From the NCBI GenBank assembly GCA_977017645.1, contig OZ360234.1, positions 94,922,001-94,986,000 on the forward strand: DNA of 64,000 nucleotides, in the 5' to 3' direction. Every line of letters begins with the position of its first letter. Within the stretch, counting starts at the first letter, position 1. This document shows, piece after piece, positions 9,183-64,000 of the stretch. The DNA comes from Torpedo marmorata (lineage: Eukaryota). The notes beneath the pieces are model-generated. The model ran no database searches. It was given only the letters and a program-made list of their open reading frames with translations, and was not told the DNA's origin. Made by a program: the position numbers and the translations under genes.

Positions 9183-10145
9183 TGTTATGGACCATGACTG
9201 ATCATTTGGACTGTGGAAGGTCAGCACCAAGGATGACGTCTTTTGAGTACACACTGGGACCAGGTATTGAAAGAGTTAACTTGCCAAGGGCCGGCTGTGC
9301 TGAGAGAGAGAGAGACATAGAGAGAGAGAGACAGGCTGTGGAAAGATACTTTGCTGCACTTTTGCAAAAGCAGGCGCAAACCTCTGCAAAAAGCATTCAG
9401 TTTGGAGTTGCAAAAAGCTGGAGAGAAAACAGCAAAACCAGAAGCTTGTGCATTTCCAGCTTGAAAGGCTGTGGAGAAGAGCACATGGCCTCCTTTATCA
9501 GTAAAAGACTGATTTAAAGCAACTTTCGTGGAGAACAGGTGTGAGATCAGCGAGACAGGCTGTGATATCCAAGTACACGCCTCAATCAGTGGTATACTGA
9601 TTTGGAACAGCAACCCTCGTGCTCATACCAAAAGGGAAAGCCATTGGAAGATAAGCAGGCCAAGCATTCGTAAGCTTAAACAGTCATTGTCTCTCTCTCC
9701 AACATTCATTAAGAAGTTCTTCATGCCACCACACAGAGCTGAATATGGACCCTGAACATGGAGAGAGATTTTTGTGGACTGTATTTTTTGGGACTGACTT
9801 ATTTTTATAACTGACCTGGGGGTTTTGGGGAAGGTTTTCTATTTTTTTTCCTTGAGAGTTGGGCACAGTCTGNNNNNNNNNNNNNNNNNNNNNNNNNNNN
9901 NNNNNNNNNNNNNNNNNNNNNNNNNNNNNNNNNNNNNNNNNNNNNNNNNNNNNNNNNNNNNNNNNNNNNNNNNNNNNNNNNNNNNNNNNNNNNNNNNNNN
10001 NNNNNNNNNNNNNNNNNNNNNTAGATGTTTATAGTGGGGTTGATTGTTGTGAAATTATATGTTTAATTGTCATAAATAAATATAAATTTAAATTTTACCT
10101 CTTTTGCATTGCGTCTTCTGTCGTTGCTGGTTTGAATTTGTAACA
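9183..10145 (+). mobile_element. 5' LTR of Gmr1-like Gypsy retrotransposon
   Basis: Starts TGTTATGGACC, ends TGTAACA (TGTTA/TAACA inverted ends); AATAAA near 3' end; homologous to 27659-28414 and 48138-49057; followed by PBS and gag. Confidence 0.9.
9873..10021. other. Assembly gap (run of N)
   Basis: N run inside the LTR. Confidence 1.
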
Positions 10146-10148
10146 AAT

Positions 10149-10166
10149 TGGGGGCTCGTCCAGGAT
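10149..10166 (+). promoter_or_regulatory. Primer-binding site, tRNA-Pro
   Basis: TGGGGGCTCGTCCAGGAT, one mismatch from the tRNA-Pro PBS TGGGGGCTCGTCCGGGAT, 3 nt after the LTR end. Confidence 0.9.
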
Positions 10167-10273
10167 TGAATCAAGCTCCAGCTTGATAATTGAAGGAATC
10201 GCAGTCTGGTTTAAGACATTCCTTTTGTAAAGCTAATGGAAAGCCAATGTGTGTATAACATAAACCAGCAACA

Positions 10274-11398
10274 ATGGATGTAGGAATTTTTTGGAATCAC
10301 CCAAACCTGATACTTTAAAAAAGGCTAAAAAGGAACAGTTAGAGGTTATAGCAATAGAGTTGGGCATTGCTTCTGTAAAACCATCAATGAAAAAGGCAAA
10401 GATTAGGAGAACAATTTCCAAATACTATATAAAATGGAAAAAGTTTGAGGAGAGCGTGTTAGAGCAGTTTCCCCAAGGGTAAACCTTCTGAAAACAAACA
10501 GTTGGAACTAAAGAAATTGGAATTGGAATTTGAACAAAATAAATTAGACAGGGAATTGGAACAAAAGAGATTAGACTTGGAGGCAGCCAGGGAACAAAAG
10601 AGATTAGACTTAAAGAGAGAGAACATTAGGCAATATGAGCTGGAAAATATTAAGTTGAAAAATGAGAGGAGACAAGAAGAGCACCAAGATCAAATTCGTG
10701 GTCCTGTTGAGAGGTTTTTGGCCAGTAGAGAAGTTAGGTTGGTTCCTCCATTTGAGGAGGCAGAAATAGATAAGTACTTCCAACATTTTGAGAAGGTGGC
10801 TGTGAAATTCAAATGGCCACAAGACCAATGGTCTCTTATGTTACAAAGTGTAATTAAAGGAAAAGCTCAGCAAGCTTATTCTACTCTTACCACGGAGCAA
10901 GCTACTGATTATGAAACGGTGAAGAAGGCTATACTCCAGGCTTATGAGTTAGTTCCAGAGGCTTATAGACAGAAGTTTAGAAATTTAAAAAGATCAGCAA
11001 CCCAATCTTACACAGCGTTTGCCTATGAAAAGGTTGTGTGTTTTGACCGGTGGTGCACATCTAAGGCGGTAAACAATGAATGCAATCATTTGAGAGAATT
11101 GATGTTAATTGAGGAGATAAAAAGGTGTGTTCCTGAGGATATTAAGGCATACTTAGATGAAAAGGAGGTGAACACTTGGCAAAATTCACCTAAGTTGGCA
11201 GGTGAATATGTTTAACCCACAAGCTAAAGTGGACGTCAGGCAGAATTTTCCAAAAGGGCACTGTGGATACTCCCAAGCAAGTGGAAAGTAAATTTGGAAG
11301 TGGTGTTAAGGAAAGAGATGAAGGGAAGTGGAAAAAGGAAAACCCTTCAGGTCCCATTTGCCATTACTGTATGAAGGCTGGTCATATGCTAGAAAGCT
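10274..11398 (+). pseudogene. Gmr1-like gag (coiled coil, SCAN-like capsid domain, CCHC knuckle), disrupted and cut by an L1 insertion
   Basis: VPPFEEAEIDKYFQHFEKVA...AYELVPEAYRQKFR...; CHYCMKAGHM knuckle; internal stops; colinear with the copy at 62283-64000. Confidence 0.85.
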
Positions 11399-11860
11399 GG
11401 TCATATGCTTGGTAAGAATGGCGGCGCTGCCGGAGCTGCTGTAGTGGCAGCGCTGCCGCTGGTGCGGACATGCGGGGAGCGTGGAAGTGGAGATACAGCA
11501 CTCCCGCGGGGTCCAGCTGCACAGTCGACTGCTGTCGGTTCCGCACGGGCTTTGAACGGCCCGTTAAAGGAGCCGACGGTGGTTTTATTTGAGATCCCGC
11601 GACAGCAGGATCTGCGCCAAAGATGGCAGCACCTTTAACCAAACTACTGCGCATGCGTGAAATGACGCGCATGAGTGAAACGCAACGGGAGCTGTTAACT
11701 GAGGTTGACAGCCAAAGAAGAACCTCCCGTTCAATTCAGTACATTGTTGGAGAGGAAAGATCATTGTCAACGGACTCAGAAGATAAAGGGAGGAAGAAAG
11801 AAATGTTTGGTGGAATGGAGAGACAAGCAGAGGAGATGGAGGGAGAGGAAAGAGATATAA

Positions 11861-13184: not shown

Positions 13185-16100
13185 ATGGCGGATAGTAAAT
13201 CAATAAATGTTGTAAATATTAATATAAATGGGCTGAATAATCTGATTAAACGGAAGAAAACTTTGGCATATATTAAAAAGTTAAAAGTTGATATAGCTTT
13301 TTTACAAGAGACACATTTGACAGATGTAGAACATCAGAAACTGAAAAGAGAATGGGTTGGTCAAGTGGTTGCGTCTTCATTTAATTCTAAAGCAAAAGGA
13401 GTTGCTATATTAATTAATAAAAAGTTACCTTTTAAAATACAATCTGTGGTTTCAGATGTGTCAGGAAGATATGTTTTAATAAATTGTCAGATATATTCAG
13501 AAATGTGGACACTTATGAATATATATGTGCCAAATACAGAAGATGAACAATTTATTCAAGATTCTTTTATGCATTTATCAGAAGCAAATGATAATATTTT
13601 AATCGGTGGGGATTTTAATTGTTGTTTTGATCCAATAATAGATAAAACATCAAAATCAATTATTAGAACTAAAACTGCAAAAAGAATTCTTTCTTTGATG
13701 AAAGATCTGAATTTAATAGATATTTGGAGGAAGTTAAATCCAAGAGAAAAAGACTATTCTTTTTATTCTTTTAGACATGATTCTTATTCTAGAATAGATA
13801 TGTTTTTATTGTCATCTCAATTAGAAGATAGGGTGACCCAAGTGCAATATAAAGCAAGAATAATTTCTGATCATTCGCTTCTAATAATGTCATGTATAAT
13901 TCCAGAAAAAGAAAAAATTATATATAGATGGAGATTAAATTCTTATTTTTTGAAAAGACCGGATTTTTGTAATTATATAAGAGAAATTCAAGAATTTTTA
14001 CAGATTAATTCCCATTTGATTGACAATAATTTTATTATTTGGGAATCTTTAAGGCTTATTTAAGAGGTCAAATAATAAGTTATTCAGCAAAAGTTAAAAA
14101 GGAATATGTTCAGGAATTAGATAATTTGGAGAAGGAGATTGAGTTTCTGGAGAAGGATTTACAAAAGAAGAGATCAGAAGAAAAGAGGAGGAATTTAATT
14201 GATAAAAAATTGTATTATAATACGTTACAAACATATAAAATGGAAAAAATAATTGAAAGAACTAAGCAAAGATATTATGAATTGGGAGAAAGAGCGCATA
14301 AAGTGTTGGTGTGGCAATTGAAGAAAGAAAAAACTTCTAGAACTATAAATGCCATAAAAAAGAATTCAAAGAAAATAACATATAAACCTCGAGAAATAAA
14401 TGATTCCTTTAGGGAATTCTATTTAAATTTATATAAATCTCAAACTGATAAAGATGATTCTAAAATTAATGCATTTTTATCTAAAATTAAGTTACCGAGA
14501 TTGAATATTCGAAATAAGGAATTTTTAGATTCAGCATTTACTATGAGAGAAGTTAACGAGGTTCTTAGTTCTTTAACAAGTGGAAAATCTCCGGGGAGGA
14601 CGGTTTCCCATCAGAATTTTATAAAGAATTTAAGGATTTATTGATACCTCCATATATGGAGGTGTTGAAACAAATAACGGAAACTCACTCGTTACCGGAA
14701 ACATTTTCAAATGCAATAATTACAGTTATACCTAAAAAAGATAGAGATGTGTTGAAAACAGAATCATATAGACCAATTTCATTGTTAAATGTGGATTATA
14801 AGATAAAGGCAAAAATATTAGCAAATAGACTGGCTAAATATTTACCAGATTTAATTCATGTAGATCAAGCAGGTTTTATTAAGAATATATATTCAAAAGA
14901 TAATATAGCAAGGTTAATTAGTTTAATAAATGTGGCACAAAAGAAAGAGGAATTAGCATTAGTATTAACATTAGATGCTGAAAAGGCTTTTGATAGACTA
15001 GAGTGGAATTATTTATTTAAAGTATTGGAAAAATTTGGTTTTGGAACTACATTTATTAATTGGATTAAAACTATATATAAAGAACCTTCCGCTAGTGTGG
15101 TGACAAATGGTCAAATTTCTTCAAAATTTTTGTTGACTAGGTCAACTAGACAAGGATGTCCTTTGTCGCCAGCCTTGTTTATTTTAGCAATAGAACCTTT
15201 GGCAGAAATAATTAGACAAGATATTAAGATTGTAGGTATTAAAGTCGGAAGAGAAGAGCATAAAATCAGTTTATTTGCAGATGATGTATTGATATATATG
15301 ACAAAACCTATTACTTCTTTAATACAATTGAATGTTTTATTGAAAGAATACGGGGAGATATCTGGTTATAAGAAAAATTCTGATAAAAGTGAAATTATGG
15401 CATTGACACAAGGGGATTATAGTAAATGTAAAGAAATTACACAATTTAAATGCTCCAAGGAAGGAATTAAATATTTGGGAATAAAGACTGATACAAAATT
15501 AGTTAATCTATATAAATTAAATTATATACCATTATTTATGAAAATTAAAAAAGATTTAGAAAGTTGGAAGGATTTACCTATAACTTTAATAGGAAGGGTA
15601 AATTGTATTAAAATGAATGTTTTTCCAAGAATTCAATATCTTTTTCAATCAATTCCTTATGAAATTCCTCAGAATTTTTTTAAAGATTTAAATTTAATTA
15701 TTAGGAAGTTTTTGTGGAAAGGAAAGTTGGCTAGAGTAGGTATGCAGAAATTAACTTGGAATTATGAATTGGGTGGTTTACAACTTCCTAATTTTCAAAA
15801 TTATTATAAAGCAGCTCAATTAAAATTTATTAATGAAATGTTTGATTCAGGAAAATCTTCTGCTTGGATTAAAATAGAATTAAATAATATAGGAGAAGAT
15901 TTGAAAGAAGAAGTTATTTATAAATGGAATTCTAAATTAGTATTAACAAGAGGGAAAAATTCTCCCATTTTTAGACATTTGTTAGAAATTTGGAATAGAG
16001 TGGATAGGGAGATTGGAGGGAAAGGGTTAATTTCTCGAAGAATGCCTTTATATCAAAATAAACTTATTCCATTTACTGTTGATAATCAATTATTTAAAAT

Positions 16101-16967
16101 TTGGTTTCAAAAGGGAATTAAGAAAATAAATGATTGTTTTGAAGCTAGTAAATTTATTACTTTTCAGAGAATGAAAGAAAAGTTGAATGTATTAGATAAT
16201 ACACTTTTTGCTTATTATCATATTAGAACATTTTTAGTTGAAAGGTTGGGTTATAGTTTGATTTTACCAAGACAAAGTGAATTGGAATTATTAGTTATTA
16301 ATGTAGGTGTAAATAAATTTATTTCTCAAATGTATAGATTATTACAGAGAAAAATGCCCAAAGTAGGAATTCACAAATCAAGATTAAAATGGGAATCAGA
16401 TTTGAATGTAACAATAGATGAAGAACATTGGAAAGAATTATGTAAATTAAGTATGACAAAAATTATTAATATCAGATATAGACTAGTGCAATATAATTTT
16501 TTCCACCAATTATATTTAACACCTAAAAATTAAAGAAATTTAATCTGACATTATCTGGTTTATGTTTTAGATGTAATAGAGAGGAAGGTTCTTTTTTACA
16601 TTCTACATGGCTTTGTCCAAAGATATATGATTTTTGGTTGAAAGTTAAAATGTTTTTAGATAAAGTATTAAGAATTACACTTCCAATGGATCCTATGATA
16701 TTTTTGTTTGGAGATATTAAAAGAATTAGTACCAAGATGAAATTAAATATGTACCAAATAGAATTTTTCCGAATTGCTTTAGCTGTTTCTAAGAAATGTA
16801 TTGCTATTACATGGAAATCTGATGTAGATTTAGGGTTAGATAGGTGGCATGCAGAACTTCGTTCAGCTATACCACTTGAAAAAATTACTTATAATTTACG
16901 TAATAAATACCATTTCTTTTTGAAAATATGGAGCCCATATATAAAAACGGTTGGTTTAAGGATTTGA
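13185..16967 (+). pseudogene. L1 ORF2p (APE endonuclease, RT, C-terminal CCHC), frameshifted
   Basis: NINGLN, LQETHL, GGDFN, SRID, SDH; LDAEKAFDRLEW, QGCPLSP, LFADD; CFRC...HSTWLCP; split over four ORFs. Confidence 0.93.
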
Positions 16968-17228
16968 AGATCTCTGGATATCAGATCTGACTGGTGAACC
17001 TATTTTCCACAATTTAGTTTATAGTTGTTCTTTTTTTAGATTGACATTGTCCTTATTTTATCTTTTTCTTTCTTTCTTTTCTATTAACTAGATTAGTAGG
17101 GGTGGGAGGGTTAGGGAGGGGAGGGAGGGTGGGGAGGAGAAAATGTATCACACGTATTTTGATAATTTTGCATTTTATACAGTGTATTGTGTGATTTAAA
17201 AATTTTAAATAAAATATTTTTAAAAAAA

Positions 17229-18228
17229 GAAAAAGAAGAGAGAAATTGATGCAACACCTAATGCTTGTATTTACAGTGAGAAGAGGCATAACACCCAGGA
17301 AGGAGACAAATTTACTGACAAAGTTAGGGATGTATTTAAACCTTTTGTGACTGATGGTTTTGTTTCAGTTAAGGCAGGATCAAAGCAAGTTCCGGTGAAA
17401 CTCTTGCGAGATACTCAGTCACTTGTGTTAGACAGTGTCTTGGAATTTTGTGAAGCCACTGAAATAAATTTAATTAAAGGAATTGGGGGTGATGTTGAGT
17501 CCATTCCTTTGCATAAAATAGTGTTGAACTCAGCCTTGGTTGAAGGACCTATTATAATAGGAGTGAGATCAGAGTTGCCAGTAGAAGGAGTCTCACTGTT
17601 GCTAGGCAATGACTTGGCTGAGGGTAAAGTAGTTCCTGCAGTGCAAATGACCACTAAGCCAGTCATTGTTCTGTCAGAGAAGGACTCTGATATTTATCCG
17701 GCATGTGCCATAACCAGGGCCATGTCTAAGAAAAACGTCAGTGTAGAGAAGGCAGTGGAAAATGAATTGGTGAAAGAAAAAGTCGGTGATAATCAAAAAC
17801 ACCTGGAAAAGGTTGAGCAATCTCCTGTATTACGCCCATACACTGATAAGACACATAAAAGCACAGATTTGTCACTATCCCGACAGGTGCGAATAGCAAG
17901 GCAAAAGGAGGATCCTGATCTTGCTGAGGTGAGGGATAAGGTTCTCTCTGAAGAGGAGATTAAGAAGGTGCCAGTGGGTTATTATGAAAAAGACGGATGT
18001 TGATGAGAAAGTGGAGACCACGTGATGTTCCTGCCAATGAAGAATGGGCAGTAGTGCAGCAGGTTGTGATCCCTAAAGTATATAGGGATGCAATAATAAC
18101 TTTGGCTCATAGCACTCCCTTAGGTGGTCACCTTGGGGTGAAGAAAACTATACGGAAGATCATGAAACAATTTTATTGGCCCAGTTTGAAAAGGGAGGTT
18201 GTAAGCTTTTGCCGGGCCTGTCACACTT
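17229..18228 (+). pseudogene. Gmr1-like pol: protease followed directly by integrase zinc-binding domain, truncated
   Basis: VKLLRDT(GAA)QSLV, LLLGNDLA protease; AHSTPLGGHLGVKKT...FYWPSLKREVVSFCRACHT (HHCC) with no RT in between. Confidence 0.85.
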
Positions 18229-39793: not shown

Positions 39794-42700
39794 ATTATTT
39801 AAAAAAAATATTTTTAACATTTTTAATCACTCGATAATACATACGGTATTACAAAATGCAAAATTATCAAAATAAATGTGATATATTTTCTCCCACCCTT
39901 ACTATTCTAATAAAATTAAAAAAGAAAAAAAGAAAGAAAGAAAAAGAAAGTAAGGAGAATGTCAATCTAAAAAGAACAACTATAAGCTTATTTTATTGTG
40001 GAACACAGGTTCGCCAGTGAGATCCGATATCCAGAGATCTTCAAAATCCTTAAACACACAGTTTTTATATATGGGCTCCATATTTTCAAAAAGAAATGAT
40101 ATTTGTTACGTAAATTATAAGTAATTTTTTCAAGTGGTATAGCTGAACGAAGTTCTGCATGCCATCTCTCTAACCCTAAATCTACATCAGACTTCCATGT
40201 AATAGCAATGCATTTCTTTGAAACAGCTAAAGCAATTTGCAAAAATTCTATTTGATACATATTTAATCTCATTCTAATACAAATTCTTTTAATATCTCCA
40301 AACAAAAATATCATAGGATCCATTGGGAGTGTAATTCTTAATACTTTATCTAAAAACTTTTTAACTTTCAACCAAAAATCATATCTTTGGACAAAGCCAC
40401 ATGGAGTGTAAAAAAACGAACCTTCCTCTTTGTTAGATCTAAAACATAAACCTGATAATGTCGGATTAAATTTCTTTAATTTCTTTGGTGTTAAATATAA
40501 TTGATGCAAAAAGTTATATTGCACTAACCTATATCTAACGTTAATAATCTTCGTCATACTTTGTTTACATAATTCTTTCCAATGTTCTTCATCTATTGTT
40601 ACATTCAAATCTGATTCCCATTTTCATCTTGATTTATGAATTCCTAGTTTAGGCATTTTTCTCTAACAATCTATACATTTGATAAATAAATTTATTTATA
40701 CCCCCATTAGTAACTAATAGTTCCAGTTTACTTTGTCTTGGTAAAATTAAACTATAGCCCAACCTTTCAACAAAAAATGCTCTAATTTGATAATAAGCAA
40801 AAAGTGTATTATTTAATACATTAAATTTCTCTTTCATCCTTTGAAAAGTAATAAATTTACTAGCTTCAAAACAATCATTTATTTGTTTTTAATTCCTTTT
40901 TGAAACCAAATTTTAAATAATTGATTGTCAATAGTAAATGGAATAAGTTTATTTTGATATAAAGGCATTTTTCGAGAAATTAACCCTTTCCCTCCTATCT
41001 CACTATCCACTTTATTCCATATTTCTAACGTGCTTTAAAATAGGAGAGTTTTTACCTCTTAATAGTAATTTAGAATTCCATTTATAAATAACTTCTTTCA
41101 AATCCTCTCCTATATTATTTAATTCTATTCTAATACAAGCAGAAGATTTCCCTAAATCAAACATTTCATTAATAAATTTTAGTTGAGCTGCTTTATAATA
41201 ATTTTGAAAATTGGGAAGTTGTAAACCTCCCAATTCGTAATTCCAAGTTAATTTCTCCATACCTACTCTAGCCAACTTTCCCTTCCACAAAAATTTCCTA
41301 ATAATTAAATTTAAATCTTTAAAATAAAATTGAGGAATTTCATAAGGAATTGATTGAAAAAGATATTGAATTCTGGGAAAAACTTTCATTTTAATACAAT
41401 TTACCCTTCCTATTAAAGTTATAGGTAAATCCTTCCAGCTTTCTAAATCTTTTTTAATATTCATAAATAATGATAAATAATTTAATTTATATAAATTAGC
41501 TAATTTTGTATCTGTTTTTATTCCCAAATATTTAATTCCATCATTTGACCATTTAAATTGTGTAATTTCTTTACATTTATTATAATCTCCTTGTGTCAAT
41601 GCCATAATTTCACTTTTATCAGAATTAATCTTATAACCAGATATTTCCCCATATTCTCTCAATAAAACAGTCAGTTGTGTTAAAGTAATAGGTTTTGTCA
41701 TGTAACTCAATACATCATCTGCAAATAAACTAATTTTATGCTCTTCTTTTCCAACTTTAATACCTACAATCTTAATATCTTGTCTAATTAATGGATAAAA
41801 CATCGAAATCAACTATCAGAACTAAAACTGCTAAAAGAATTCTTACTTTGATGAAAGATTTGAATTTAATAGATATTTGGAGGAAGTTGAATCCAAGAGA
41901 AAAAGATTATTCCTTTTATTCTTTTAGACATGATTCTTATTCTAGAATAGGTATGTTTTTATTGTCATCACAATTAGAAGATAGGGTGACTCAAGCGCAA
42001 TATAAAGCAAGAATAATTTCTGATAATTTGCCTCTATTAATGTCATGTATAATTCCAGAAAAATATAAAAATATATAGGTGGAGATTTAATTCCTCTTTA
42101 TTGAAAAGAATGGATTTTTGTAATTATACAAGAAGAGAAATTCAAGAATTTTTACAGATTAATTCTAATTTGATTGACAATAAATTTATTATTTGGGAAG
42201 CTCTGAAAGCTTATTTAAGAGGTCAAATAATAAGTTATTCAGCAAAAGTTAAGAAGGAATATATTCAGGAATTGGATAATTTGGAGAAGGAGATTGAGTT
42301 TTTGGAGAAGGATTTGCAAAAAAAGAGATCAGAAGAAAAGAGGAAAAATTTAACTGAAAAAAATTATATTATAATACGTTACAAACATATAAAATGGGAA
42401 AATTAATTGAAAGAACTAAGGAAAGATATTATGAATTGGGAGAAAGAGCTCATAAAGTGTTAATGTGGCAATTAAAGAAAGAAAAAACTTCTAGAACTAT
42501 AAGTGCTATAAAAAGGAATTCTAAGAAAATAACATATAAAACGAGAAATAAATGATTCTTTTAAGGAATTTTATTTAAATATATATAAATCCCAAACTGA
42601 TAAAGGTGATTCTAAAATTAATGAATTTTTATCTAAAATTAAGTTACCTTGATTAAATATTCAAAGTAAAGAACTTTTAGATTCATCGTTTACGATGAGA

Positions 42701-51115: not shown

Positions 51116-54100
51116 AAAGACGAAGGAGACGATTGTGGACTTCAGGAGGACCATGGACGACCACCCTCCACTGCACATTAATAGCTCAGTAATGGAGAGA
51201 GTGGAGAGCACCAAGTTCCTCAGAGTCCAGTTCAGAAGTGACCTATCCTGGACACACAACATCTCCTCTCTTGTCAGGAAGGCGAAAAAGCAACTACATT
51301 TCCTGAGAAGACTGAGGCGGGCAAGGCTACCAACCACGATCCTGTCAACTTTCTACAGGAGCTCTATTGAGAGCGTCCTGGCCGGCTGCATCATAGTGTG
51401 GAGCATTAGATCGGAGGTCAATCCACAGGACCATAAGAGTGGCAGAGAGAAAAAGCTGGTAGAATTGATCTAAAGAGATTTGATAAAATTTAGTTACGAT
51501 GGATAGTAAGAAAATAAATGTAGTAAATATTAACATAAATGGGCTTAACAATCCGATTAAAAGAAAGAGAACTTTAGCATATATTAAAAAGTTGAATGTA
51601 GATATAGCTTTTTTACAGGAGACGCACTTGATAGATTCGGAACATCATAAGTTAAAAAGAGAATGGGTTGGTCAAGTGGTGGCTTCTTCATTTAATTCTA
51701 AAGCAAGAGGGGTAGCTATATTAATTAATAAAAAGTTACCTTTTAAGATACAATTGGTAGTTATAGATGTGGCAGGTAGATATGTTTTGATACATTGTCA
51801 GATTTATTCAGAATTCTGGACACTTATGAAATTGCATGTGCCAAATGCAGATGACAAACAGTTTATTCAAGATTCTTTTTTACATTTGTCAGAAGCTATT
51901 GAGAATATTTTAATTGGGGGAGATTTCAACTGTTCCCTAGATCCAATAATGGATAAAACTTCAAGATCACTTGCTAAAACTAAAATTGCTAAAAGAGTTC
52001 TTAGTTTGATGAAAGATTTAAATTTAATAGATATTTGGAGGAAATTGAATCCTAGAGAAAAAGATTATTCTTTTTATTCTTTCAGACATGATTCATATTC
52101 TAGGATAGATTTATTTTTATTGTCTTCACAGGTTCAAGATAGAATAACGCAAGCATCTTATAAAGCGAGAATAATTTCTGATCATTCACCTTTATTAATA
52201 TCTTGTATAATTCCGGAAAAAGAAAAAACTGTATATAGCTAGAGATTCAATTCTTTTTTATTAAAAAGAAAAGATTTTTGTGATTATATGAGAAGGGAAA
52301 TTCAGGAATTTTTACAAATAAATTCTAATTCTACTGATAATAAATTTATTATTTGGGAAGCTTTAAAAGCTTATTTAAGAGGTCAAATAATAAGTTATTC
52401 AGCAAAAATTAAGAAAGATTATCTTAGGGAAGTAGAAAATTTAGATAAGGAGATTGAGTGTTTGGTAAAAGATTTACAAAAAAACAGATCAATTCAAAAA
52501 AGGAACCATTTAATTGGGAAGAAATTACATTACAATTTATTACAAACATATAAAATGGAAAAATTAATTGAAAGAACTAAACAAAGATACTATGAGTTAG
52601 GGGAAAGAGCTCATAAAGTTTTGGCATGGCAATTAAAAAAAGATCAACCTTCTAGAACTATAAATGCTATAAGGAAAAAGAACTCTAGAGAAATAACTTA
52701 TAAACCTCGAGAAATAAATGATTATTTTAAAGATTATTATTTGAATTTATATAAATCTCAGATTGATCAAGACGACTCTAAAATTACTAGATTTTTATCT
52801 AAAATTATATTACCTAAATTGAATACTCAAAGTAGAGAATCTTTAGATTTACCTTTCTCAATGAGGGAAGTTAATGAAGTTCTTACTTCTCTAAAGAGTG
52901 GTAAATCTCCAGGTGAAGATGGATTTCCATCAGAATTTTACAAAGAGTTTAAAGATTTATTAATACCTCCATATATGGATGTATTGAATCAAATTACGGA
53001 AACTCACTCATTACCAGATACTTTCTTAAATGCAATAATTACAGTTATACCAAAGAAAGATAGAGATGTATTGAAAACTGAATCTTATAGACCTATCTCA
53101 TTATTAAATGTAGATTATAAGAGAATGGCAAAAATTTTAGCAAATAGAATGGCTAATTATTTACCAGATTTAATTCATGTAGATCAAGCTGGTTTTATTA
53201 AAAATAGATATTCAAAAGATAATATAGCTAGATTGATTAGTTTAATTAATTTACATAAAAAGAAGGAAGATTTACCATTAGTTTTAACTTTAGACGCCGA
53301 AAAGGCTTTTGATAGATTAGAGTGGAATTTTTTATTTAAGGTATTAGAGAAATTTGGTTTTGGAAATACATTTATTAATTGGATTAAAACTATATATAAA
53401 GAACCATCTGCTAAAGTAGTTACAAATGGACAAATTTCTTCAAAATTTCCTTTGACTCGATCTACTAGACAAGGATGTCCTTTGTCACCAGCATTATTAA
53501 TTTTGGTGATAGAACCTTTGGCAGAATTAGTTAGAAAAGATCCTAAAATAATTAGTATTAAAGTTGGAATGGAAGAACATAAAATTAGTTTATTCGCAGA
53601 TGATGTATTGATATATATGACAAAAATCTATTACATCCTTAGTACAACTGTCTGTGTTATTGAGAGAATATGGGGAAATATCTGGATATAAAATTAATTC
53701 TGATAAAAGTGAAATTATGGCATGATCACAAGGGGATTATAGTAGATGTAAAGAAATTACACAATTTAAATGGGCAAAGGAAGGAATTAAATATTTGGGA
53801 ATAACGGTTGACACAAAATTGGCTAATTTATACAAATTAAATTATTTACCATTATTTGTGAAAATAAAGAAAGATTTAGAAAATTGGAAAGATTTACCTA
53901 TAACTTTAATGGGAAGAGTAAATTGTATTAAAATGAATGTTTTTCCAAGAATTCAATATCTTTTTGAATCAATTCCTTATGAAATTCCTCAAAAATTTTT
54001 TAAAGATTTAAATTTAATTATTAGAAAATTCTTATGGAAAGGAAAGTTAGCAAGAGTAGGTATGGAAAAGCTAACTTGGAATTATGAAATGGGTGGTTTA

Positions 54101-55992
54101 CAACTTCCTAATTTCCAAAATTATTATAAAGCAGCTCAATTAAAATTTGTTAATGAATTTTTTGATTCAACTAAATCTTCTGCTTGGATTAAAATAGAAT
54201 TAAATAATATAGGAGAAGATTCCAAAGAAGAAGCTATTTATAAATGGGATTCTAAATTAATATCAACAAGAAAGAAAAATTCTCCTATTCTTAAACATTT
54301 GTTAGGAATATGGAATAAGATGGATAAGGAAATAGGAGGAAAAGGATTGATTTCTTCAAGGATGCCTTTATATCAAAATGGACTTATACCATTTACTATT
54401 AATAATCAATTATTTAAAATTTGGTTTCAAAAAGGAATTAAGAAAATTAATGATTGTTTTGAAGCTGGGAAATTTATTACTTTTCAAAGAATGAAAGATA
54501 AATTTAATATATTAGATAATACACTTTTAGCTTATTATCAAATTAGAGCTTTTCTGATTGAGAAATTAGGTTATGCTTTGATTTTACCAAGACAGAATGA
54601 ATTAGAATTATTAGTTACTAAAGGAGATGTCAATAAATTTATTTCTTAAATGTATAAATTGTTTCAGAGGAAAGTGCCTAAGGTAGGAATTCATAAATCA
54701 AGATTAAAATGGGAATTAGATTTGAATGTAAGAATAGATGAAAATCATTGGAAAGAATTATGTAAATTAAGTATGATGAAGATTATTAATGTTAGATATA
54801 GATTAGTACAATACAATTTTTTTCATAAATTATATTTAACATCTAAAAAACTAAAGAAATTTAATCCGACATTATCAGGTTTATGTTTTAGATGTAATAA
54901 AGAGGAAGGTTCTTTTGTACATTCTACATGGTTTTGTCCAAAAGTTTATGATTTTTGGTTGAAAGTTAAAAAAATTTTAGATAAAGTATTTAAGATTACA
55001 TTTCCAATGGATCCTATGATATTTTTGTTTGGAGATATTAGAAAATTTAGTATTAAGATGAAATTAAATATGTATCAAATAGAATTTTTGCGAATTGTTT
55101 TAGCTGTTTCAAAGAAATGTATTGCTATTACTTGGAAATCTGATTGAGATTTAGGATTAGAAAGATGGCATGCAGAACTTCGTTCGTGTATACCACTTGA
55201 AAAAATTACTTATAATTTATGTAACAAATATCATTTTTTCTTAAAAATTTGGAGCCCATATATGAAAGTTGTTGGTTTAAGGATTTGAAGATCTCTGGAT
55301 ATCGGATCTACTGGCATACTTGACCTCTATAATAGAATTAGTTTATAGATTGGCATTCTCCTTACTCTATCTTTTTCTTTCTTTTTTCTTCTTCTTTTTC
55401 TATTTTTATTTTATATTTTTATTTTTATTAGGTTAGTGGGGTTGGGAGGGTTGGGGAGGGGAGGGGCGGAGGGGGGTGTGAAAATGTATCACAAATACTT
55501 TGATAATTTTATATTTTATTTTATGTATTTTGTGATTTAAAAATTTTAAATAAAATATTTAAAAAAAAAGAGTGGCAGAGAGGATCACTAGAGTCTCCCT
55601 TCGCCACATCGACGTGATCTACCAAACTCGTTGTTTGAAGAGGGCGCGCAAAATTTTTGAGGACCCCATCACCCTGCACACAGCATCTTTCAGCTACTCC
55701 TGTTGGAAAAGAGAAACAGGAGTATCAGAGCCAGAAACACCAGCCTGAGACACAGCTTCTTCCCACGGGCAGTGAGACCGCTGAAATCCAGAATGTACTG
55801 CTCATACAAACCCTCCTAATCTCTACTATTTATTAAACAAAATTTATTTATTTTAATATCCAGTATGTATATATGTCCTGCATATGTATTGTTTGTCTGT
55901 ATGTGTGTTGTGTCTGGATGTGTGTCTGCATGTTTTGCACCGAGGACCGGAGTACGCTGTTCTATTGGGTTATACTTGAACAATCGGATGAT
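51113..55992 (+). mobile_element. Rex1/Babar-like LINE fragment split by an L1
   Basis: KTKETIVDFRR...FYRSSIESVLAGCIIVW (51113-51449) resumes at 55583 with HPAHSIFQLL and a 3' UTR. Confidence 0.8.
51450..55567 (+). mobile_element. L1 truncated just upstream of ORF2; complete but disabled ORF2 (51499-55288), 3' UTR, poly(A)
   Basis: All EN/RT/CCHC motifs present with a few stops and a frameshift; 15-bp TSD AAGAGTGGCAGAGAG at 51435-51449 and 55568-55582. Confidence 0.94.
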
Positions 55993-57624: not shown

Positions 57625-58310
57625 AATAAAAACACCGAAATGCTGGAAGAAGTCAGCTGGTCTATTCAAGCATCTATAGGAGACAAAGATATATTGCCGA
57701 CGTTTCGGGCCTGAGCCCTTCTTCAACGAAAATTCAGAAAAGGCAGAAGCAGGATATATCAAAAAGTCTCAGAATTCAAACAATGGGGGAGGAATCCAGA
57801 CCAACAAAAGGTGTTAATTGGGTGTGATAAGGGACTAGGTAGAATTTATCATGTCTGTGCGAAAGGAGACTAGGAATGGAGAGACGACGTGGGAAGCAAG
57901 GGGGTGGGGCGGGTTTAACGAAAGCCAGAGAAGTCGATATTAATGCCATCCAGTTGGAGGGTGCCCAGTCGGAAGATGAGGTGTTGTTCCTCCAAGTTAC
58001 GGGTGGTCTCAGTCTGGCAGTACATGAGACCATGGACAGACATGTCGGCAAGGGAATGGGATGGAGAATTGAAATGGGTGGCCACTGGGAGTTCCACGCT
58101 ATTGTGGTGGACAGAGCCGAGGTGCTCAACAAAGCGATCTCCCAGTCTGCGTCCAGTCTCTCCGATGTGGAGGAGACCACAACGGGAGCACCGGATGTAG
58201 TAGATGACCCCTGTAGATTCACAAGTGAAATGTTGCTTCAATTGGAAGGACTGTTTGGGCCCCGAATGGATTTTACTACAATCACAGCATCTGCAGCCTA
58301 TCGTGTTTCA
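57625..58310 (-). mobile_element. Penelope-like insertion (GIY-YIG + pLTR with hammerhead-like core + short inverted end) inside a CR1 tail
   Basis: HFTCESTGVIYYIRCSRCGLLHIGETGRRLGDRF...LEEQHLIFRLGTLQLDGINIDF; 12-bp TSD AACTATTATTCT at 57613-57624 and 58311-58322. Confidence 0.9.
57699..57726 (-). ncRNA. Minimal hammerhead-ribozyme-like motif (best-preserved copy)
   Basis: Minus strand TTGAAGA-A-GGGC-TCAG-GCCC-GAAA-CGTC: (C/U)UGANGA box, 4-bp stem II, GAAA, GUC triplet. Confidence 0.6.
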
Positions 58311-58579
58311 AACTATTATTCTGCCTAGTCACATTGACCTGCATCCTCCATAACCCTCCATACCACCCCCCACCCCCCACACATCCATGTACCTGTCCGA
58401 ATTTTCCTTAAATGTCAAAATTGAGCCCGCATTCACAAAGAAAATGGGGACAGAAGTAGGCTACCCTCCTTCAAATGTGCCCCCCACCCCAATCATGGCT
58501 GATCAATGCTGGCCTCAACTGTGCCAGTTCTCATTAACCATTTATTCCTCGATCTTCCAAATATTTATCCACATTTTCT

Positions 58580-58765
58580 TGTTGTGTTATTATGTGTAAA
58601 TAAGAACTAAATTTCCCAGCATGCAATGCGCGTGGTTGGGTGGAAACCGGAAGTGACATTTGAGGGGAGTCGGTAGGAAGTCGGTTGAAGCAGCTCAAGG
58701 AAAGAAAGGTCGGTTAAGTGTTAAACCCACATAAAGTCATTCTTCTTGAAAGAACAAGCATAACA
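58580..58765 (+). mobile_element. 5' LTR of a second Gypsy family
   Basis: TGTTGTG...CATAACA termini, directly followed by a PBS and gag. Confidence 0.8.
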
Positions 58766-58779
58766 TGGTGTCAGAAGTG
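58766..58779 (+). promoter_or_regulatory. Primer-binding site, tRNA-Leu type
   Basis: TGGTGTCAGAAGTG immediately after the LTR. Confidence 0.8.
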
Positions 58780-58814
58780 TCTGAGTGAGTAAGAGAAGAC
58801 AATAGTTCGTAAGC

Positions 58815-61800
58815 ATGGATAAGTTAAGTCCTCCCACACCAATGCAGTTTACCAGCAATCTAGCCGATAATTGGATACGCTTCAAACAACGATTCAACAT
58901 TTATTTAGAAGCTGGTGGAATGGGAGAGACCGATGGAAAACAGAAAGCGTCTATGTTTCTGCATGTGATGGGTGAAGATGGCTTGGATATCTATAACAGT
59001 TTTCAAATTGATGAGACAACTTTCACGTTGGACACGCTGATGACAAAATTTGAGGAGTATTTTGTTCCAAGTAAAAACGTCACATTTGAGAGATTCAAGT
59101 TTTTCTCCTGTGACCAGAAACAAGGTATGAACTTTGACCAATACTTAGCCGAGCTTCACACACTGAGTAAGTCCTGTGAATTTGGAGATTTGAAAAATTC
59201 ACTCATTAAAGACAGAATAATTTGCAGAATGCCAGATAATGGACTTAGAGAAAGACTGTTGCGTGAAAAAGATTTGACTCTGGAAAAGGCTGTGAATGTG
59301 TATAGGGAAATAGATACTACACGAGCACAAGCTAAGGAACTGCACAAGATAGACTCAACAGTTATGGAGCTGCACAGGATAGACACAACAGTGCATGTGA
59401 TGAAAACAGATAAGCAGAGCACCAGGAGTTTCCCAAAGCAACAACACAGCAAAGTGGTAGATTCTGGCTTTATCTCAAGGTGATTATACTAGATGTAGAG
59501 AGGTTACGGAGTTTAAATGGGCTAAAGAAAGTATTAAATATTTGGGAGTTAAAGTGGATACAAAATTGGAAAATTTGTATAAATTAAATTATATACCTTT
59601 ATTCATGAAAATAAAAAAAGATTTAGAACTTTGGAAAGATCTACCTATAACTTTGATGGGAAGAGTAAATTGTATCAAAATGAATGTTTTTCCAAGAATT
59701 CAATATCTTTTTCAATCGATTCCTTTTGGAATCCCAAATAAATTTTTAAAGGATTTAAAATTTGTTATTAGGAAATTTTTATGGAAAGGAAAGTTGGCAA
59801 GAGTAAGTATAGATAAATTAACATGGAATTATGAGATGGGAGGATTGCAACTTCCTAATTTTCAGTATTACTATAAAGCAGCTCAATTAAAATTTATTAA
59901 TGAATTTTTTGATTCAACTAAATCTTCTGCTTGGATTAATATAGAATTGAATAATATAGGAGAAATACATAAAGAAGAGATTATTTATAAGTGGAACTCT
60001 AAATTATTATTAGCTAAAAAGAAAAATTCACCAATTATTAAACATTTGTTGGAAATTTGGTCACAAGTAGATAAAGAAATAGGTCGGAAAGGATCAATTT
60101 CTTTAAATACACCAATATACCAAAATTTGCTTATACCATTCTCTATTGATAATCAGTTACTTAAATTATGGTTTCAAAAGGGAATTAAGACCTTGAAAGA
60201 TTGTTTTGAAGCTGGTAGATTTGTTACTTTTCAAAGGTTAAAAGAAAAATTTAATATACTAGATAATACAATGTTAGTTTATTTTCAAGTTAAAGCCTTT
60301 TTGACTGAGATATTAGGGAATGAATTAGTAGCACCAAGACAAAATGAATTGGAATTGTTAATTACTAAAGTTAATATTAATAAGTTTATATCACAAGTGT
60401 ATAAATTATTTCAGAGAAAGATGTCTAAAGTAGGGTTACATAAATCTAGATTAAAATGGGAACTAGACTTAAATGTTAATATATATGAAAATCATTGGAG
60501 AGACTTATGTAAATTAAGTATGACTAAAGTTTTGAATGTTAGATATAGACTAGTACAATATAATTTCTTTCATCAATTATATTTAACACCTAAAAAATTG
60601 AAGAAATTTAATCCAGCATTATCAGATATGTGTTTTAGATGTAAGAGTGAAATAGGCTCTTTTGTTCACTGTACATGGTTATGTTCAAAAATTCAAGACT
60701 TTTGGTTGAAAGTTAAGAATTTTTTAGAGAGAATTTTTAATGTTGTGTTTACGATGGATCCTATGTTATTTTTATTTGGAGATATTAGAAAATTTAGTAT
60801 TAGAAATAGATTAAATATGTATCAGGTAGAATTTCTACGTATAGTATTAGCAGTTTCGAAAAAGTGTATAGCTATTACTTGGAAGTCAGATGTAGATTTA
60901 AATTTAGAAAGATGGCATGCAGAATTACGTTCATGTATACCACTAGAAAAAATTACCTATAATTTGCGTAATAAATATCATTTTTTCTTGAAAATTTGGG
61001 GCCCATATATGAGAATTATGGGTTTAACAATTTAAATTCTCTGGATATCGAATCCACTGGCAAAAATAACCTCTATGGTAGAATTAGTTTGAAGCTTGTT
61101 TTCTCCTCACTCTATTTCTCTATCTTTCTTTTTTCTTTTTCTCTTTTACTATATTTTTTTTTAGAGTAGTGGGGATGTAGGGGTTAGGGAGGGGAGGGTG
61201 GGAAGGGGGGGGAGAAAATGTATATCACATGTATTTTCAAATATATGTATTTTATTCTATGTATTTTGTGATTTAAAAATTTAAATAAAATAAAAAAACC
61301 AAAAAAAAAAAACCAAAGCAAAGTGGTAAGCTCAAACAGCAAATGCAGCAGATGCGGAGGTAGACATATTCCAAAGATGTGTCCTGCCTATGGAAAGTCC
61401 TGCAATAAGTGTGGGAAGAAGAATCATTTTGCAAAGTGCTGCAAAGCAGGGTATACCAAGAGAAATGTACACACAGTGGACGAAGAAATGGAGGAATTCT
61501 TCGTGGATTCACTACAGACTGCTGCTGCTGGTAAAACGGAATGGATTGTTCCAGTGACTGTGAATGAGACAGTAACTCCATTTAAGCTCGACACTGGAGC
61601 CCAGGTGAATCTGTTATCTATGGATGATTACAAGACTCTCACTGTAAAGAGCAAGATTTATCCTGTGAAATTAAAAGTGACAGGCTACACTGGAGAGAAT
61701 GTTCCAGTAAAAGGGGGCTGTATGGTGACCTTCAAACACAAAAGGACGGCATCTAAAGTCATAGCTACTGATTGTAGAAAGGAGAGTGCAGCCAATATTA

Positions 61801-61884
61801 GGTCTGAGTGTATGTGAAGAGCTCGACCTGGTGAAAAGAGTTTTCATAATGGCTTCACAGACCGAAGATAAGCACACAACACTC
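58815..61884 (+). pseudogene. Gypsy gag-protease, split by an L1 and truncated before RT
   Basis: NLADNWIRFKQRF, NVTFERFKF, LIKDRII; after the L1 [49 protein letters not shown]. Confidence 0.9.
59460..61316 (+). mobile_element. 5'-truncated L1 inserted in Gypsy gag
   Basis: Uninterrupted 497-aa ORF2 C-terminus, G-rich 3' UTR, poly(A); TSD AGCAAAGTGGTA at 59448-59459 and 61317-61328. Confidence 0.94.
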
Positions 61885-62283
61885 ATGGAAGAAAGGATAA
61901 CTACACTGGAGAAGCGATACCTTAATGTACAGAGAGAATCAACCTCATTACATGTCATCATGAATGACAAGCTGGAAAATGAGTTGGCAAATAAGGATGC
62001 CTTCTTACACCAGCTAGAAGACAAAAATAGACAGTTACAGGAACGTCTGGAACTGGCTGAACAGAAAGTGCAGCAAACAATGAGGCGAGCAGAAACGTTA
62101 CCAGAAGTAGAAGCTGAACTTTCCCAGCGAATTGCAGCTCTGACAAAGGCTGAAGAGTGGCATGGCAGCATAGAAGAACGTTTGAGACATTTATAGACTC
62201 AGCTTGACTCTAATGAGCAACTTCAGCTGCATCTAAAAGAAAGAATGGCTGTATTAGAGGATAAGAATATATCGATACAAGAA
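61885..62283 (+). pseudogene. PPFIA2: Processed liprin-alpha (PPFIA2-like) mRNA fragment, coiled-coil region
   Basis: [13 protein letters not shown]...[11 protein letters not shown]...[81 protein letters not shown]; no introns, one stop, internal deletion; paralog assignment less certain than family. Confidence 0.88.
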
Positions 62284-64000
62284 TGTTACAAAGTGTAATT
62301 AAAGGAAAAGCTCAGCAAGCTTATTCTACTCTTACCACAGAGCAAGCTGCTGATTATGAAACAGTGAAAAAGTCTATACTCCAGGCTTATGAGTTAGTTC
62401 CAGAGGCTTATAGACAGAAGTTTAGAAATTTAAAAAGATCAGCAACCCATTCTTATACAGAGTTTGCCTATGAAAAGGTTGTGTGTTTTGACCGGTGGTG
62501 CACATCTAAGGAGGTAAACAATGATTACAATCAATTGAGAGAATTGATACTAATTGAGGAGATAAAAAGGTGTGTTCCTGAGGATATTAAGGCATACTTA
62601 GATGAAAAGGAGGTGAAAACTTGGCAAAATTCAGCTACTTCAGCAGATAAATATGCTTTAACTCACAAGCCTAAGTGGACGTCAGGCAGAATTTTCCAAA
62701 AGGGCACTGTGGATAATCCCAAGCAAGTGGAAAGTAAATTTGGAAGTGGTGTTAACGGAAGAGATGAAGGGAAGTGGAAAAAGGAAAACCCTTCGGGTCC
62801 CATTTGCCACTACTGTAGGAAGGCTGGTCATATGCTAGCAAGCTGTCCAGTGTTGAAAAAGAAGAGAGAAAAGGATGCAACACCAAATGCTTGTATTCAG
62901 AGTGAGAAGAGGCATTACACCCAGGAAGGAGACAAATTTACTGACAAAGATAGGGATGTATTTAAACCTTTTGTGACTGATGGTTTTGTTTCAGTTAAGG
63001 CAAGATCGAAGCAAGTTCCAGTGAAAATCTTACAAGATACTGGAGCTGCTCAGTCACTTGTGTGAGATTGTGTCTTGGAATTTTGTGAAGCCACCGACAC
63101 CGATGACATGAATTTAATTAAAGGAATTGGGGGTGATGTTGAGTCCATTTTTTTGCACAAAATAGTGTTGAACTCAGCCTTGGTGGAAGGACCAGTTATA
63201 AGAGGAGTGAGATCAGAGTTGCCAGTAAAAGGAGTCTCACTGTTGCAAGGCAATGACTTTGCTTAGGGTGAAGTAGTTCCTGCAGTGCGAATGACCACTA
63301 AGCCAGTCATTGATAAGTCAGAGAAGGACTCTGATATTTAACCGGCATGTGCCATAATCAGGGCCATGTCTAAGAAAACTTTCACTGCAGAGAAAGCAGT
63401 GGAAAAGAAATTGGTGAAAGAAAAAGTCGGTGATAATCAAAAACGCCTGGAAAAGGTTGAGCAATCTCCTGTGTTATGCCCATACACTGATAAGACACCT
63501 AAAGGCACTGATTTGTCATTATCCCGACATGTGCGAATAGCAAGGCAATAGGAAGATCCTGATCTTGCTGAGGTGAAGGATAAGGTTCGCTCTGAAGAGG
63601 AGATTAAGAAGGTGCCAGTGGGTTATTATGAAAAAGATGGGGTGTTGATGAGAAAGTGGAGACCTTGTGATGTTTCTGCCAGTGAAGAATGGGCAGTAGT
63701 GCAGCAGGTTGTGATCCCTAAAGTATATAGGGACTAAAAAATAAATTTGGGTCATAGTACACCCTTAGGTGGTCACCTTGGCGTGAAGAAAACTATAAGT
63801 AAGTTAATGAAACAATTTTATTGGCCCAGTTTGAGAAGGGAGGTTTCAGCTTTTGCCGGGCCTGTCACACTTGTCAGGTGGTGGGTAAACCTAATCAGGG
63901 TCCCCCGGTGGCACCCTTGCAACCTATCCCTGCTTTCAGTGAGCCTTTCTCAAGAGTAATTGTGGACTGTGTTGGCCCATTGCCCAAAACCAAAGCGGGG
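62283..64000 (+). mobile_element. Second Gmr1-like copy: gag C-terminal half, protease, integrase (runs off the window)
   Basis: Colinear with 10838-11398 plus 17229-18228; intact CHYCRKAGHMLASC, LQDTGAAQSL, HHCC, then EPFSRVIVDCVGPLPKTK integrase start. Confidence 0.92.

Follow-up and report, generated by a model that had tools for sequence, protein, structure and literature searches.

A spliced PPFIA2 piece in the Torpedo marmorata genome belongs to a multicopy, non-autonomous Gypsy family that carries pieces of two host genes

We analyzed a 64,000-nt stretch of Torpedo marmorata DNA (GCA_977017645.1, contig OZ360234.1, positions 94,922,001 to 94,986,000; hereafter, the window) and found that the spliced liprin-alpha piece near its end is part of a real, multicopy, non-autonomous family of Gypsy elements (family A). 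Members of this family are approximately 2.9 kb long and read LTR, primer-binding site (PBS), gag, protease, five exons of PPFIA2, six exons of TPR, PPT, and LTR; the cargo is in frame with gag-pro and replaces the RT-RNaseH-integrase of an autonomous helper between the pro linker and the pol stop. The true third template, next to Gypsy and liprin, is a second host gene, TPR, whose piece is lost from the window copy. It is probable that family A is a host-gene carrier made by three template-switching steps in reverse transcription, that its cargo is a passenger, and that the window copy was damaged later.

Exact-pattern searches of the genome, for which reversed-pattern controls gave 0 matches, returned at least 168 matches to the liprin-TPR join, 126 to the linker-liprin join (J1), and 88 to the helper-type continuation of the linker, so that an earlier note on this DNA was right to suspect a multicopy gene-carrying element. 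By these matched patterns, family A has at least as many copies as the helper. A first look gave 414 candidates for the family. The liprin-TPR join was present in 25 of 29 other copies and a second LTR lay within the locus in 21 of them; complete copies had an exact 5-bp TSD in six cases and a 4/5 match in two more (n = 9). The copies decay, with stops in most. Contigs from runs under other organism labels bridge the family joins; none of the listed runs with such sequence is registered as RNA. Of two runs that are RNA by guess only, and that carry no weight as evidence here, X9 has long contigs resembling the parent mRNAs and X14 has one contig, possibly DNA, that bridges J1. No protein with both PF25526 and PF25785 was present in the best 120 of 7991 or the best 120 of 340, no annotated protein combining protease and liprin was present in the best 120 of 281, and no description of a liprin-TPR element was found in open-access text.

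The window copy and the sequence joined to it are laid out as follows:

58578..58582, no strand: left flank CTTGT, 5 nt, not repeated after the downstream Gmr1-type LTR (CTACC there)
58583..58765, plus strand: family A 5' LTR, 183 nt, TG..CA; the autonomous helper has the same LTR
58766..58779, plus strand: PBS, a motif starting TGG directly after the LTR; the matching tRNA is presumably tRNA-Leu
58815..59459, plus strand: 5' part of gag with its ATG at 58815; weak PNMA match (E = 0.005)
59460..61313, plus strand: LINE, a later insertion, 5'-truncated, with an A-rich tail (alignment to other copies in the window)
61314..61884, plus strand: gag zinc knuckle, aspartic protease, and pro-RT linker (Pfam, reading frames)
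61885..61892, plus strand: switch point J1, ATGGAAGA, common to the helper linker and a PPFIA2 exon (mid-exon); in frame
61885..62284, plus strand: spliced PPFIA2 (liprin-alpha-2) coiled-coil piece, five exons (exon alignment)
approximately 61885-62013, 62014-62148, 62149-62207, 62208-62265, and 62266-62284, plus strand: the five PPFIA2 exon pieces
62283..62284, plus strand: private out-of-frame join, AT (comparison with other family A copies)
62283..64000, plus strand: Gmr1-like element, 5'-truncated, with SCAN gag, protease, and the start of integrase (Pfam, translated motifs)

The Gypsy LTR, PBS, gag, and protease (PF13650, E = 3e-5) are present as previously described, except that the LTR starts at 58583, 3 nt after the proposed 58580. 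The liprin piece is 400 nt long and encodes a coiled coil (PF25526, E = 2e-44); a 99-nt in-frame deletion typical of a subfamily spans its exon 3/4 join (between 62207 and 62208), and neither of its ends has a poly(A), a TSD, or a splice site, in agreement with the earlier note. A single frame had also been proposed to run from gag-pro through approximately 400 nt of liprin: the join is indeed in frame, but in this copy the protease region has gained 1 nt near 61740 and a stop occurs prematurely at 62194, so the frame is open over 61765-62196 only. The LINE inside gag, absent from the earlier description, is approximately 1.85 kb long and flanked by a 15-nt TSD (59445-59459 and 61314-61328; 14/15 identical). 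It shares 76-82% identity with other copies within the window, and we take it to be of the L1-like class; a Pfam scan of its frame gave 0 matches. LINEs are abundant in this stretch. ARAGORN found 0 tRNAs in the window.

Directly after the liprin piece lies a gag with a SCAN domain (PF02023, E = 3e-10), which matches window positions 10838-11399 at 94% identity; the abrupt passage from liprin into a Gmr1-like gag stands. The downstream element is of the Gmr1 type, with integrase before RT (translated motifs by eye) and SCAN in gag (Pfam), and it runs beyond the window with INT, RT/RH remnants, PPT, and its own LTR. What does not stand is the role given to it: liprin had been read as a bridge and the Gmr1-like element as the third template, so that Gypsy A, liprin mRNA, and the Gmr1-like element would be a single reverse-transcription chimera mobilized as a unit. 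Although the window does show the three parts side by side, their join was seen in the window copy alone (1 of 40 scored places), 0 of 29 other family A copies continue into a Gmr1-like element, and at the join the frame is broken and no more than 2 nt (AT, 62283-62284) are shared. Reverse transcription yields identical LTRs. The window structure has an A-type 5' LTR and is closed by a Gmr1-type LTR, i.e., LTRs of different families with no TSD in common (flanks CTTGT vs. CTACC), and 0 A-type LTRs were found in the 20 kb past the window. Moreover, the window piece has the 99-nt deletion of an A subfamily, indicating that its source was an A copy whose assembly was already complete. Such a three-template chimera is thus highly improbable. 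Lost at the private join are the remainder of liprin, the whole TPR piece, the family A 3' LTR, and the 5' end of the Gmr1-like element; the join is likely a genomic deletion to a neighboring Gmr1-like element. No contig bridging it was found among those listed, and it may be a local misassembly.

The parent genes are present in the same genome. With a sister copy (L011) as query, the liprin piece matched five exons of the genome's own PPFIA2 at 97-99% identity, so it is not a chance resemblance, and 11.4 kb of PPFIA2 introns are missing from the element. Taken together, five PPFIA2 and six TPR exons matched at 95-99% identity, with GT-AG introns in the parents and none in the element. The proposal that spliced liprin-alpha mRNA was captured is therefore confirmed, and an origin within a single exon is ruled out. 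By eye, most copies differ from the parents at approximately 3 PPFIA2 sites in 543 nt and by 7 TPR events in 768 nt; junctions and variant counts alike were read by eye from alignments. A genome search with upstream PPFIA2 sequence found only 4 paralogous loci. Upon searching for copies with PPFIA2 well past exon 5, exon 6 was matched by the parent only (1 of 1 candidate), a search that missed 13 nt of exon 6 in family C (below), later seen in copy L077. The autonomous helper (L108) has RVT_1, RT_RNaseH, and rve in order, i.e., the PR-RT-RH-IN type, and another helper copy (L109) has the same 3' end and LTR as family A.

Two further families carry one gene piece each. Family C (liprin only; 12 of 40 scored) consists of helper gag-pro, then a PPFIA2 piece that starts at ATGGAAGA and ends after the first 13 nt of exon 6, after which helper integrase resumes at a shared AGCAG. 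Family B (TPR only; 3 of 41 matches) consists of helper gag, then TPR (whale-shark residues approximately 291 to 607), then the helper 3' end from a shared GTGGAA directly after the pol stop. Both counts are minimum values, obtained by scoring 40 candidates. Family A combines the 5' join of C with the 3' join of B, and the switch between them lies at AAGGAA, present in both; this motif is complete in spliced RNA only, because it spans a PPFIA2 exon join. The J1 sequence is flanked by CTC and GTAC in the helper (at most of the 88 exact places) and by GAT and AAGG in the PPFIA2 parent, which upholds the earlier suggestion of capture at ATGGAAGA microhomology. Across the switch points 8, 6, 6, and 5 nt are shared, and the fifth has 3 nt inside an 11/12 near-match; the chance of such microsimilarity was estimated by hand only. 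Trans-splicing was rejected as a source of the joins, since J1, J4, and J3 on its TPR side fall within exons; family B does join gag to TPR at the start of a TPR exon, yet gag has no GT donor at that point.

These joins are consistent with a three-step history. A switch from helper gag-pro to PPFIA2 mRNA at ATGGAAGA and back to helper integrase would have produced C; a switch from helper gag to TPR mRNA and back to the helper 3' end at GTGGAA would have produced B; and one recombination between co-packaged C and B RNAs, with a switch at AAGGAA, would have produced A. Family A would then have been copied in trans by helper RT and integrase and have come to outnumber both parents, while the window copy would afterwards have received the LINE and then been joined to the neighboring Gmr1-like element. 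The order from C and B to A rests on parsimony, and A is likely the C x B recombinant. C and A have in common J1 and a derived Leu-to-Ser codon that is absent from the parent, shark, and ray proteins; all 7 TPR differences from today's parent are common to B and A, which does not polarize the order.

The reverse order, in which A arose first in one round from helper, PPFIA2 mRNA, and TPR mRNA, and B and C came later via the parent mRNAs, we regard as unlikely. A is far commoner than B and C, sequence homology would make it easier to switch from A to a parent mRNA, and captures with multiple switches are described in the available text of Tan et al. (2016; PMC5131818). Against this, each parent mRNA would have to be met twice, with approximately four more switches, and C and B hold sequence without counterpart in A (integrase and 13 nt of PPFIA2 exon 6 in C; approximately 185 nt of TPR in B). 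An L1-made processed pseudogene in a Gypsy copy, or an assembly artifact of the whole structure, has practically no probability. LINEs are abundant and one sits in the gag of the window copy, but the cargo takes the place of pol instead of interrupting it, both cargo ends are mid-exon coding sequence without poly(A) or TSD, and more than 120 dispersed sites, as well as contigs from other runs, show the same joins. Both are refuted for the family; the private join of the window copy alone is without read support.

We favor switching in three steps, and the cargo so acquired is most likely a passenger. In 51 of the first 100 listed A copies (of 198), a common 19-nt frameshift removes the final ~40 codons of TPR (approximately residues 566-605), and among informative C copies 7 of 9 have in common a net -44 frameshift that leads straight to a stop. 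Because these frameshifted subfamilies multiplied as well, a passenger role for the cargo is probable. The cargo frame was not preserved beyond the rest of the element, as a functional captured gene would have it. The frame is maintained at all three 5'-side joins (gag-TPR, pro-liprin, and liprin-TPR) and across the common 99-nt deletion, although a pure passenger would have no need of it. A useful cargo, in which the pore-binding domain of TPR, as part of a Gag-Pro-liprin-TPR polyprotein or of its coiled-coil tail after cleavage, would anchor particles at the nuclear pore basket and thereby cause the burst of family A, is rather unlikely. The TPR piece corresponds to human residues 351-605 (offset checked by L458/M489) and coincides with the pore-binding domain, given as human 357-606 (historic) or 450-606 (remapped) in the available part of bioRxiv 10.64898/2026.10.08.757499; a random piece of that size would cover 450-606 approximately 5-8% of the time (by hand), the joins are in frame, and the accessible text of PMC5909446 describes basket nucleoporins as influencing Ty1 and Tf1. 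On the other hand, 51 of the first 100 listed copies have the truncated domain and multiplied all the same, family B has the whole domain in frame with gag and only 3 copies were found, the few changes common to copies include amino-acid-changing ones (Leu-Ser, Met-Thr) beside silent ones, and stops accumulate. With some small probability, then, the in-frame Gag-Pro extension, comprising the TPR pore-binding domain and a dimerizing liprin coil, docks at the nuclear basket; if so, docking would explain why the two-gene recombinant outnumbers its single-gene parents and matches or passes the helper, and copies with a frameshift would be cheating, relying on complementation in trans.

The transforming retroviruses E26 (gag-myb-ets) and Gardner-Rasheed FeSV (gag-actin-fgr) are helper-dependent, have pol replaced, and carry a single in-frame gag fusion from two cellular mRNAs, formed somatically and selected for transformation. 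In contrast, family A belongs to the germ line, where many copies are fixed, and it can apparently dispense with its cargo. Crocodilian ERVs with KIT-ligand or nectin3 are likewise vertebrate LTR elements that captured and recopied host mRNA but, as far as the available text of Chong et al. (2014; PMC4299795) goes, they are retroviruses that each took up a single gene, number 9 and 6 copies, and have it in a separate ORF under purifying selection, whereas family A is a Gypsy whose two genes are fused to gag-pro, whose copies run into the hundreds, and in which alignments read by eye give no sign of selection. Animal LTR-mediated retrocopies, in the parts of Tan et al. (2016; PMC5131818) at hand, have pieces of host mRNA in place of the internal ORFs that lie between the LTRs, switch points with ~6-nt microsimilarity, and secondary retroposition; they include the two-gene chimera CG4799_CG11924_r and a mouse four-gene case, and secondary copies are few (nine fly retrocopies at 18 insertion sites; five LTR-type in zebrafish). 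Our case resembles them in intronless cargo, ORF replacement, microsimilarity, and two LTRs with a TSD, and differs in being one two-gene carrier with at least 168 copies of which both single-gene precursors survive. Maize Bs1 is similarly a non-autonomous LTR element with spliced host-gene pieces and switch points common across copies; it is from a plant, has 1-5 copies and three parent genes, and the same parts of PMC5131818 do not mention surviving intermediates.

The capture mechanism is thus already known, and what is unusual is the scale and the preserved steps of assembly; in the sources available to us, multi-gene LTR capture is otherwise known from single loci or few copies. Here, one genome keeps the whole likely pathway, namely the helper, both parents, both intermediates, the recombinant, and its subfamilies, which supports exon shuffling via recombination of two gene-carrying elements, not one round with multiple jumps. 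The copies record older alleles of PPFIA2 and TPR, their dispersed cargo can confound gene annotation and read mapping for both genes, and their number, in the hundreds, allows a direct test of whether the cargo benefits the element. A vertebrate Gypsy is therefore able to spread pieces of host coding sequence to hundreds of sites.

The window holds a damaged member of family A, a non-autonomous Gypsy element, joined to a Gmr1-like element. The family A part comprises (window coordinates):

58583-58765, LTR of family A, followed by the primer-binding site (PBS)
from 58815, gag, then zinc knuckle, protease and a linker ending in EDKHTTL
59460-61313, 5'-truncated LINE of 1.85 kb within gag, flanked by a 15-nt target-site duplication (TSD; 14/15 identical)
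61885-62284, liprin coiled coil of 400 nt (PF25526, E 2e-44)

The SCAN-bearing gag of the second family directly follows the liprin piece. The observation in the earlier note is real, and its layout of LTR, gag, protease, liprin and second gag was correct except that the LINE in gag had been missed. In this copy the frame is disturbed near 61740, where 1 nt is inserted, and meets a stop at 62194. The copy belongs to the one subfamily that lacks 99 nt across the PPFIA2 exon 3/4 join, a stretch that is whole in the others. Relatives of the LINE lie at 15386-17237, 39908-41616 (minus strand) and 53706-55566, and a short reading frame at 57915-58307 (minus strand) may resemble the GIY-YIG endonuclease found in Penelope-like elements.

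Searching the genome that the window comes from (6.2 Gb) returned 414 candidate places for the liprin piece; besides the window, 39 were scored, with 94-96% identity and ending at or shortly before 62284. Of the 29 other copies fetched, 25 go on into an additional join, and in 21 the locus includes a second LTR. Complete copies measure ~2.9 kb, and the flanks of nine of them formed an exact 5-bp TSD (6/9), matched at 4/5 positions (2/9) or did not match (1/9). The liprin piece is liprin alpha-2, its closest matches coming from rays and sharks, and the additional ~770 nt are TPR (86% to whale-shark TPR; PF25785, E 6e-24). A single frame spans gag, protease, liprin and TPR. Most copies contain stops; L096 has one internal stop before a late one, and L011 has none between protease and the end. 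Exact pattern matches numbered 126 at the linker-liprin join and 168 at the liprin-TPR join, and a TPR motif was matched 198 times (reversed controls: 0). These figures are floors because copies diverge by several percent; we estimate 300-400 copies in total. The multicopy, gene-carrying element that had been suspected thus exists. Longer LTR variants on family B copies (TPR-only carriers) and some A copies (L058:5805-6037, L060, L019, L029) suggest LTR swaps among subfamilies. The liprin piece of L102, L132 and L114 shows further internal deletions at short direct repeats, in a stretch deleted repeatedly.

The parent genes lie on contigs C48 (PPFIA2) and C22 (TPR). Five PPFIA2 exons (97-99%) and six TPR exons (95-98%) are represented in the cargo, from which the GT-AG introns of both parents, 11.4 kb in PPFIA2, are absent, upholding the earlier claim of a captured spliced liprin mRNA. 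Since most copies differ from the present exons at only ~3 sites in 543 nt (PPFIA2) and by 7 events in 768 nt (TPR; alignment read by eye), and the L011 LTR pair differs by ~7%, capture likely occurred shortly before the burst. At several sites (L042:2631, L052:5580 and the 2150 region of L052; Gly vs Asp, Ser vs Thr and His-Ile vs Ser-Leu) the present exons differ from nearly all copies, while other species' proteins agree with the copies, which therefore likely preserve older host alleles of PPFIA2 and TPR.

The cargo was set against the helper, an autonomous element with the same LTR, in which the linker is followed by a non-liprin codon at 88 places, nearly all ATGGAAGAGTAC/T, and RT, RNase H and integrase follow in that order (L108). 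At the linker/liprin switch point (J1), helper and PPFIA2 have ATGGAAGA in common (8 nt, in frame), the microhomology that the earlier note had suggested. At the liprin/TPR point (J3), AAGGAA (6 nt, in frame) is common to spliced PPFIA2, across its exon 5/6 join, and mid-exon TPR; at J4, GTGGAA is common to TPR and the helper immediately after its pol stop. Estimated by hand with equal base frequencies, an overlap of 8 nt or more would arise by chance with a probability near 1e-4, one of 6 nt or more near 1e-3 and one of 5 nt or more near 5e-3; purine-rich sequence raises these values. In run X3 (organism B) contigs bridged all of J1, J3 and J4, in X6 (organism C) they bridged J1 and J3, and in X10 (organism E) J1; these are three organism labels in three studies, and one of the organisms could be the source species. 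One helper-type copy (L066:1334-1533), whose 3' end lies within ~150 nt after the protease linker, is a cargo-free deletion derivative.

Two single-cargo families bear on the order of assembly. In family B (3/41 matches, L058-L060), gag is joined in frame to TPR residue ~291 (3 nt common, within an 11/12 near-match), protease and liprin are missing, and the TPR piece ends at J4 as in family A. Family C, the liprin-only carriers (12/40 scored places), has J1 as in family A and includes the first 13 nt of PPFIA2 exon 6, after which an out-of-frame join at AGCAG leads into helper integrase; it shares a derived Leu-to-Ser codon with A. Because AAGGAA is present within both B and C, one switch at that point during minus-strand synthesis, with B RNA as the first template and C RNA as the second, would yield A. 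Were A first and B and C its derivatives, both host mRNAs would have to be met twice, and by parsimony we place B and C before A. An X3 contig (L011:1513-1944) running from the protease linker directly to TPR, with the whole liprin piece skipped and a 5-nt overlap, is a further derivative. An A-type fragment sits back to back with a B copy at L059:2850-5450, and the gag of this B copy carries a small inverted-repeat insertion.

The earlier note had read liprin as a bridge between the two retrotransposons, made from three templates during reverse transcription. That reading did not hold: none of the 29 other copies continues into Gmr1-like gag, and the window join, which is out of frame, is the sole instance among 40 scored places, sharing 2 nt (chance ~0.16 by the same hand estimate with equal base frequencies). 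Downstream, integrase, RT/RH remnants and a PPT lead to an LTR of the Gmr1-like element's own kind (L031:2669 to L032:3071, interrupted by a LINE). The outer flanks of the composite differ, and an A-type LTR was not found in the 20 kb downstream of the window. Reverse transcription gives identical LTRs, and because those at the two ends are unlike, a genomic deletion between neighbouring elements is the best reading. None of the contigs listed bridged the join. A second Gmr1-like copy (10020-11399 and 17229-18228; LTR end, PBS and gag, split by a LINE) is 90-94% identical to 62283-63872. When X1 and X10 were compared with X3 and X14, summed contig depth over Gmr1-like gag (62283-62700) reached millions in X1 and tens of thousands in X10, but in X3 it ranged from tens up to roughly a thousand, in contrast to a far more even depth over the liprin part; this hints at lineage-specific expansion, depth not being equal to copy number. 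Gmr1-like gag matches at 2472-nt spacing on a small contig (L124-L126; G000:C2746:137646-142653) suggest a tandem array.

All three joins on the 5' side keep the frame, and so does the 99-nt deletion, which would fit a cargo useful to the element; in-frame joins would, however, also be favoured by microhomology between coding sequences. The TPR piece (residues 427-681 of P0013; human 351-605 by an offset of 76, checked at L458 and M489, which land on L534 and M565) nearly coincides with the NPC-binding domain, which bioRxiv 10.64898/2026.10.08.757499 places at 357-606 by the historic mapping and at 450-606 after remapping. There is also overlap with the insertion region at 390-660 described in 10.64898/2026.02.20.707084. 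The influence of basket nucleoporins on Ty1 and Tf1, as excerpted from PMC5909446, also counts towards function. The liprin piece matches the solved chain 8z22_C and appears to lie within CC2, the region to which RIM and ELKS bind (PMC12151379, in excerpt). Against function, among the first 100 listed copies (out of 198) 51 have a common 19-nt frameshift that removes about TPR residues 566-605 and 49 are intact, 7/9 informative C copies have a common frameshift with an immediate stop, and family B has the full TPR domain yet few copies. Most likely the cargo was carried as a passenger; if a long open frame brought any benefit, it may have been to RNA stability at most.

Gag fusions of two host genes are known from acute retroviruses. 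In the features tested, family A agrees with LTR-mediated retrocopies (Tan et al., 2016, PMC5131818, in excerpt), among which chimeras of two genes and secondary copies occur there in low numbers; family A is far more numerous than Bs1 (1-5 copies, same excerpt). The genes captured by crocodilian ERVs are present in 9 and 6 copies and evolve under purifying selection (PMC4299795, in part). The result listings of a literature search contained no report of family A. Family A, at least level with its helper by matched patterns (126 vs 88), is set apart by its copy number, its surviving intermediates and its match to the pore-binding domain of TPR.
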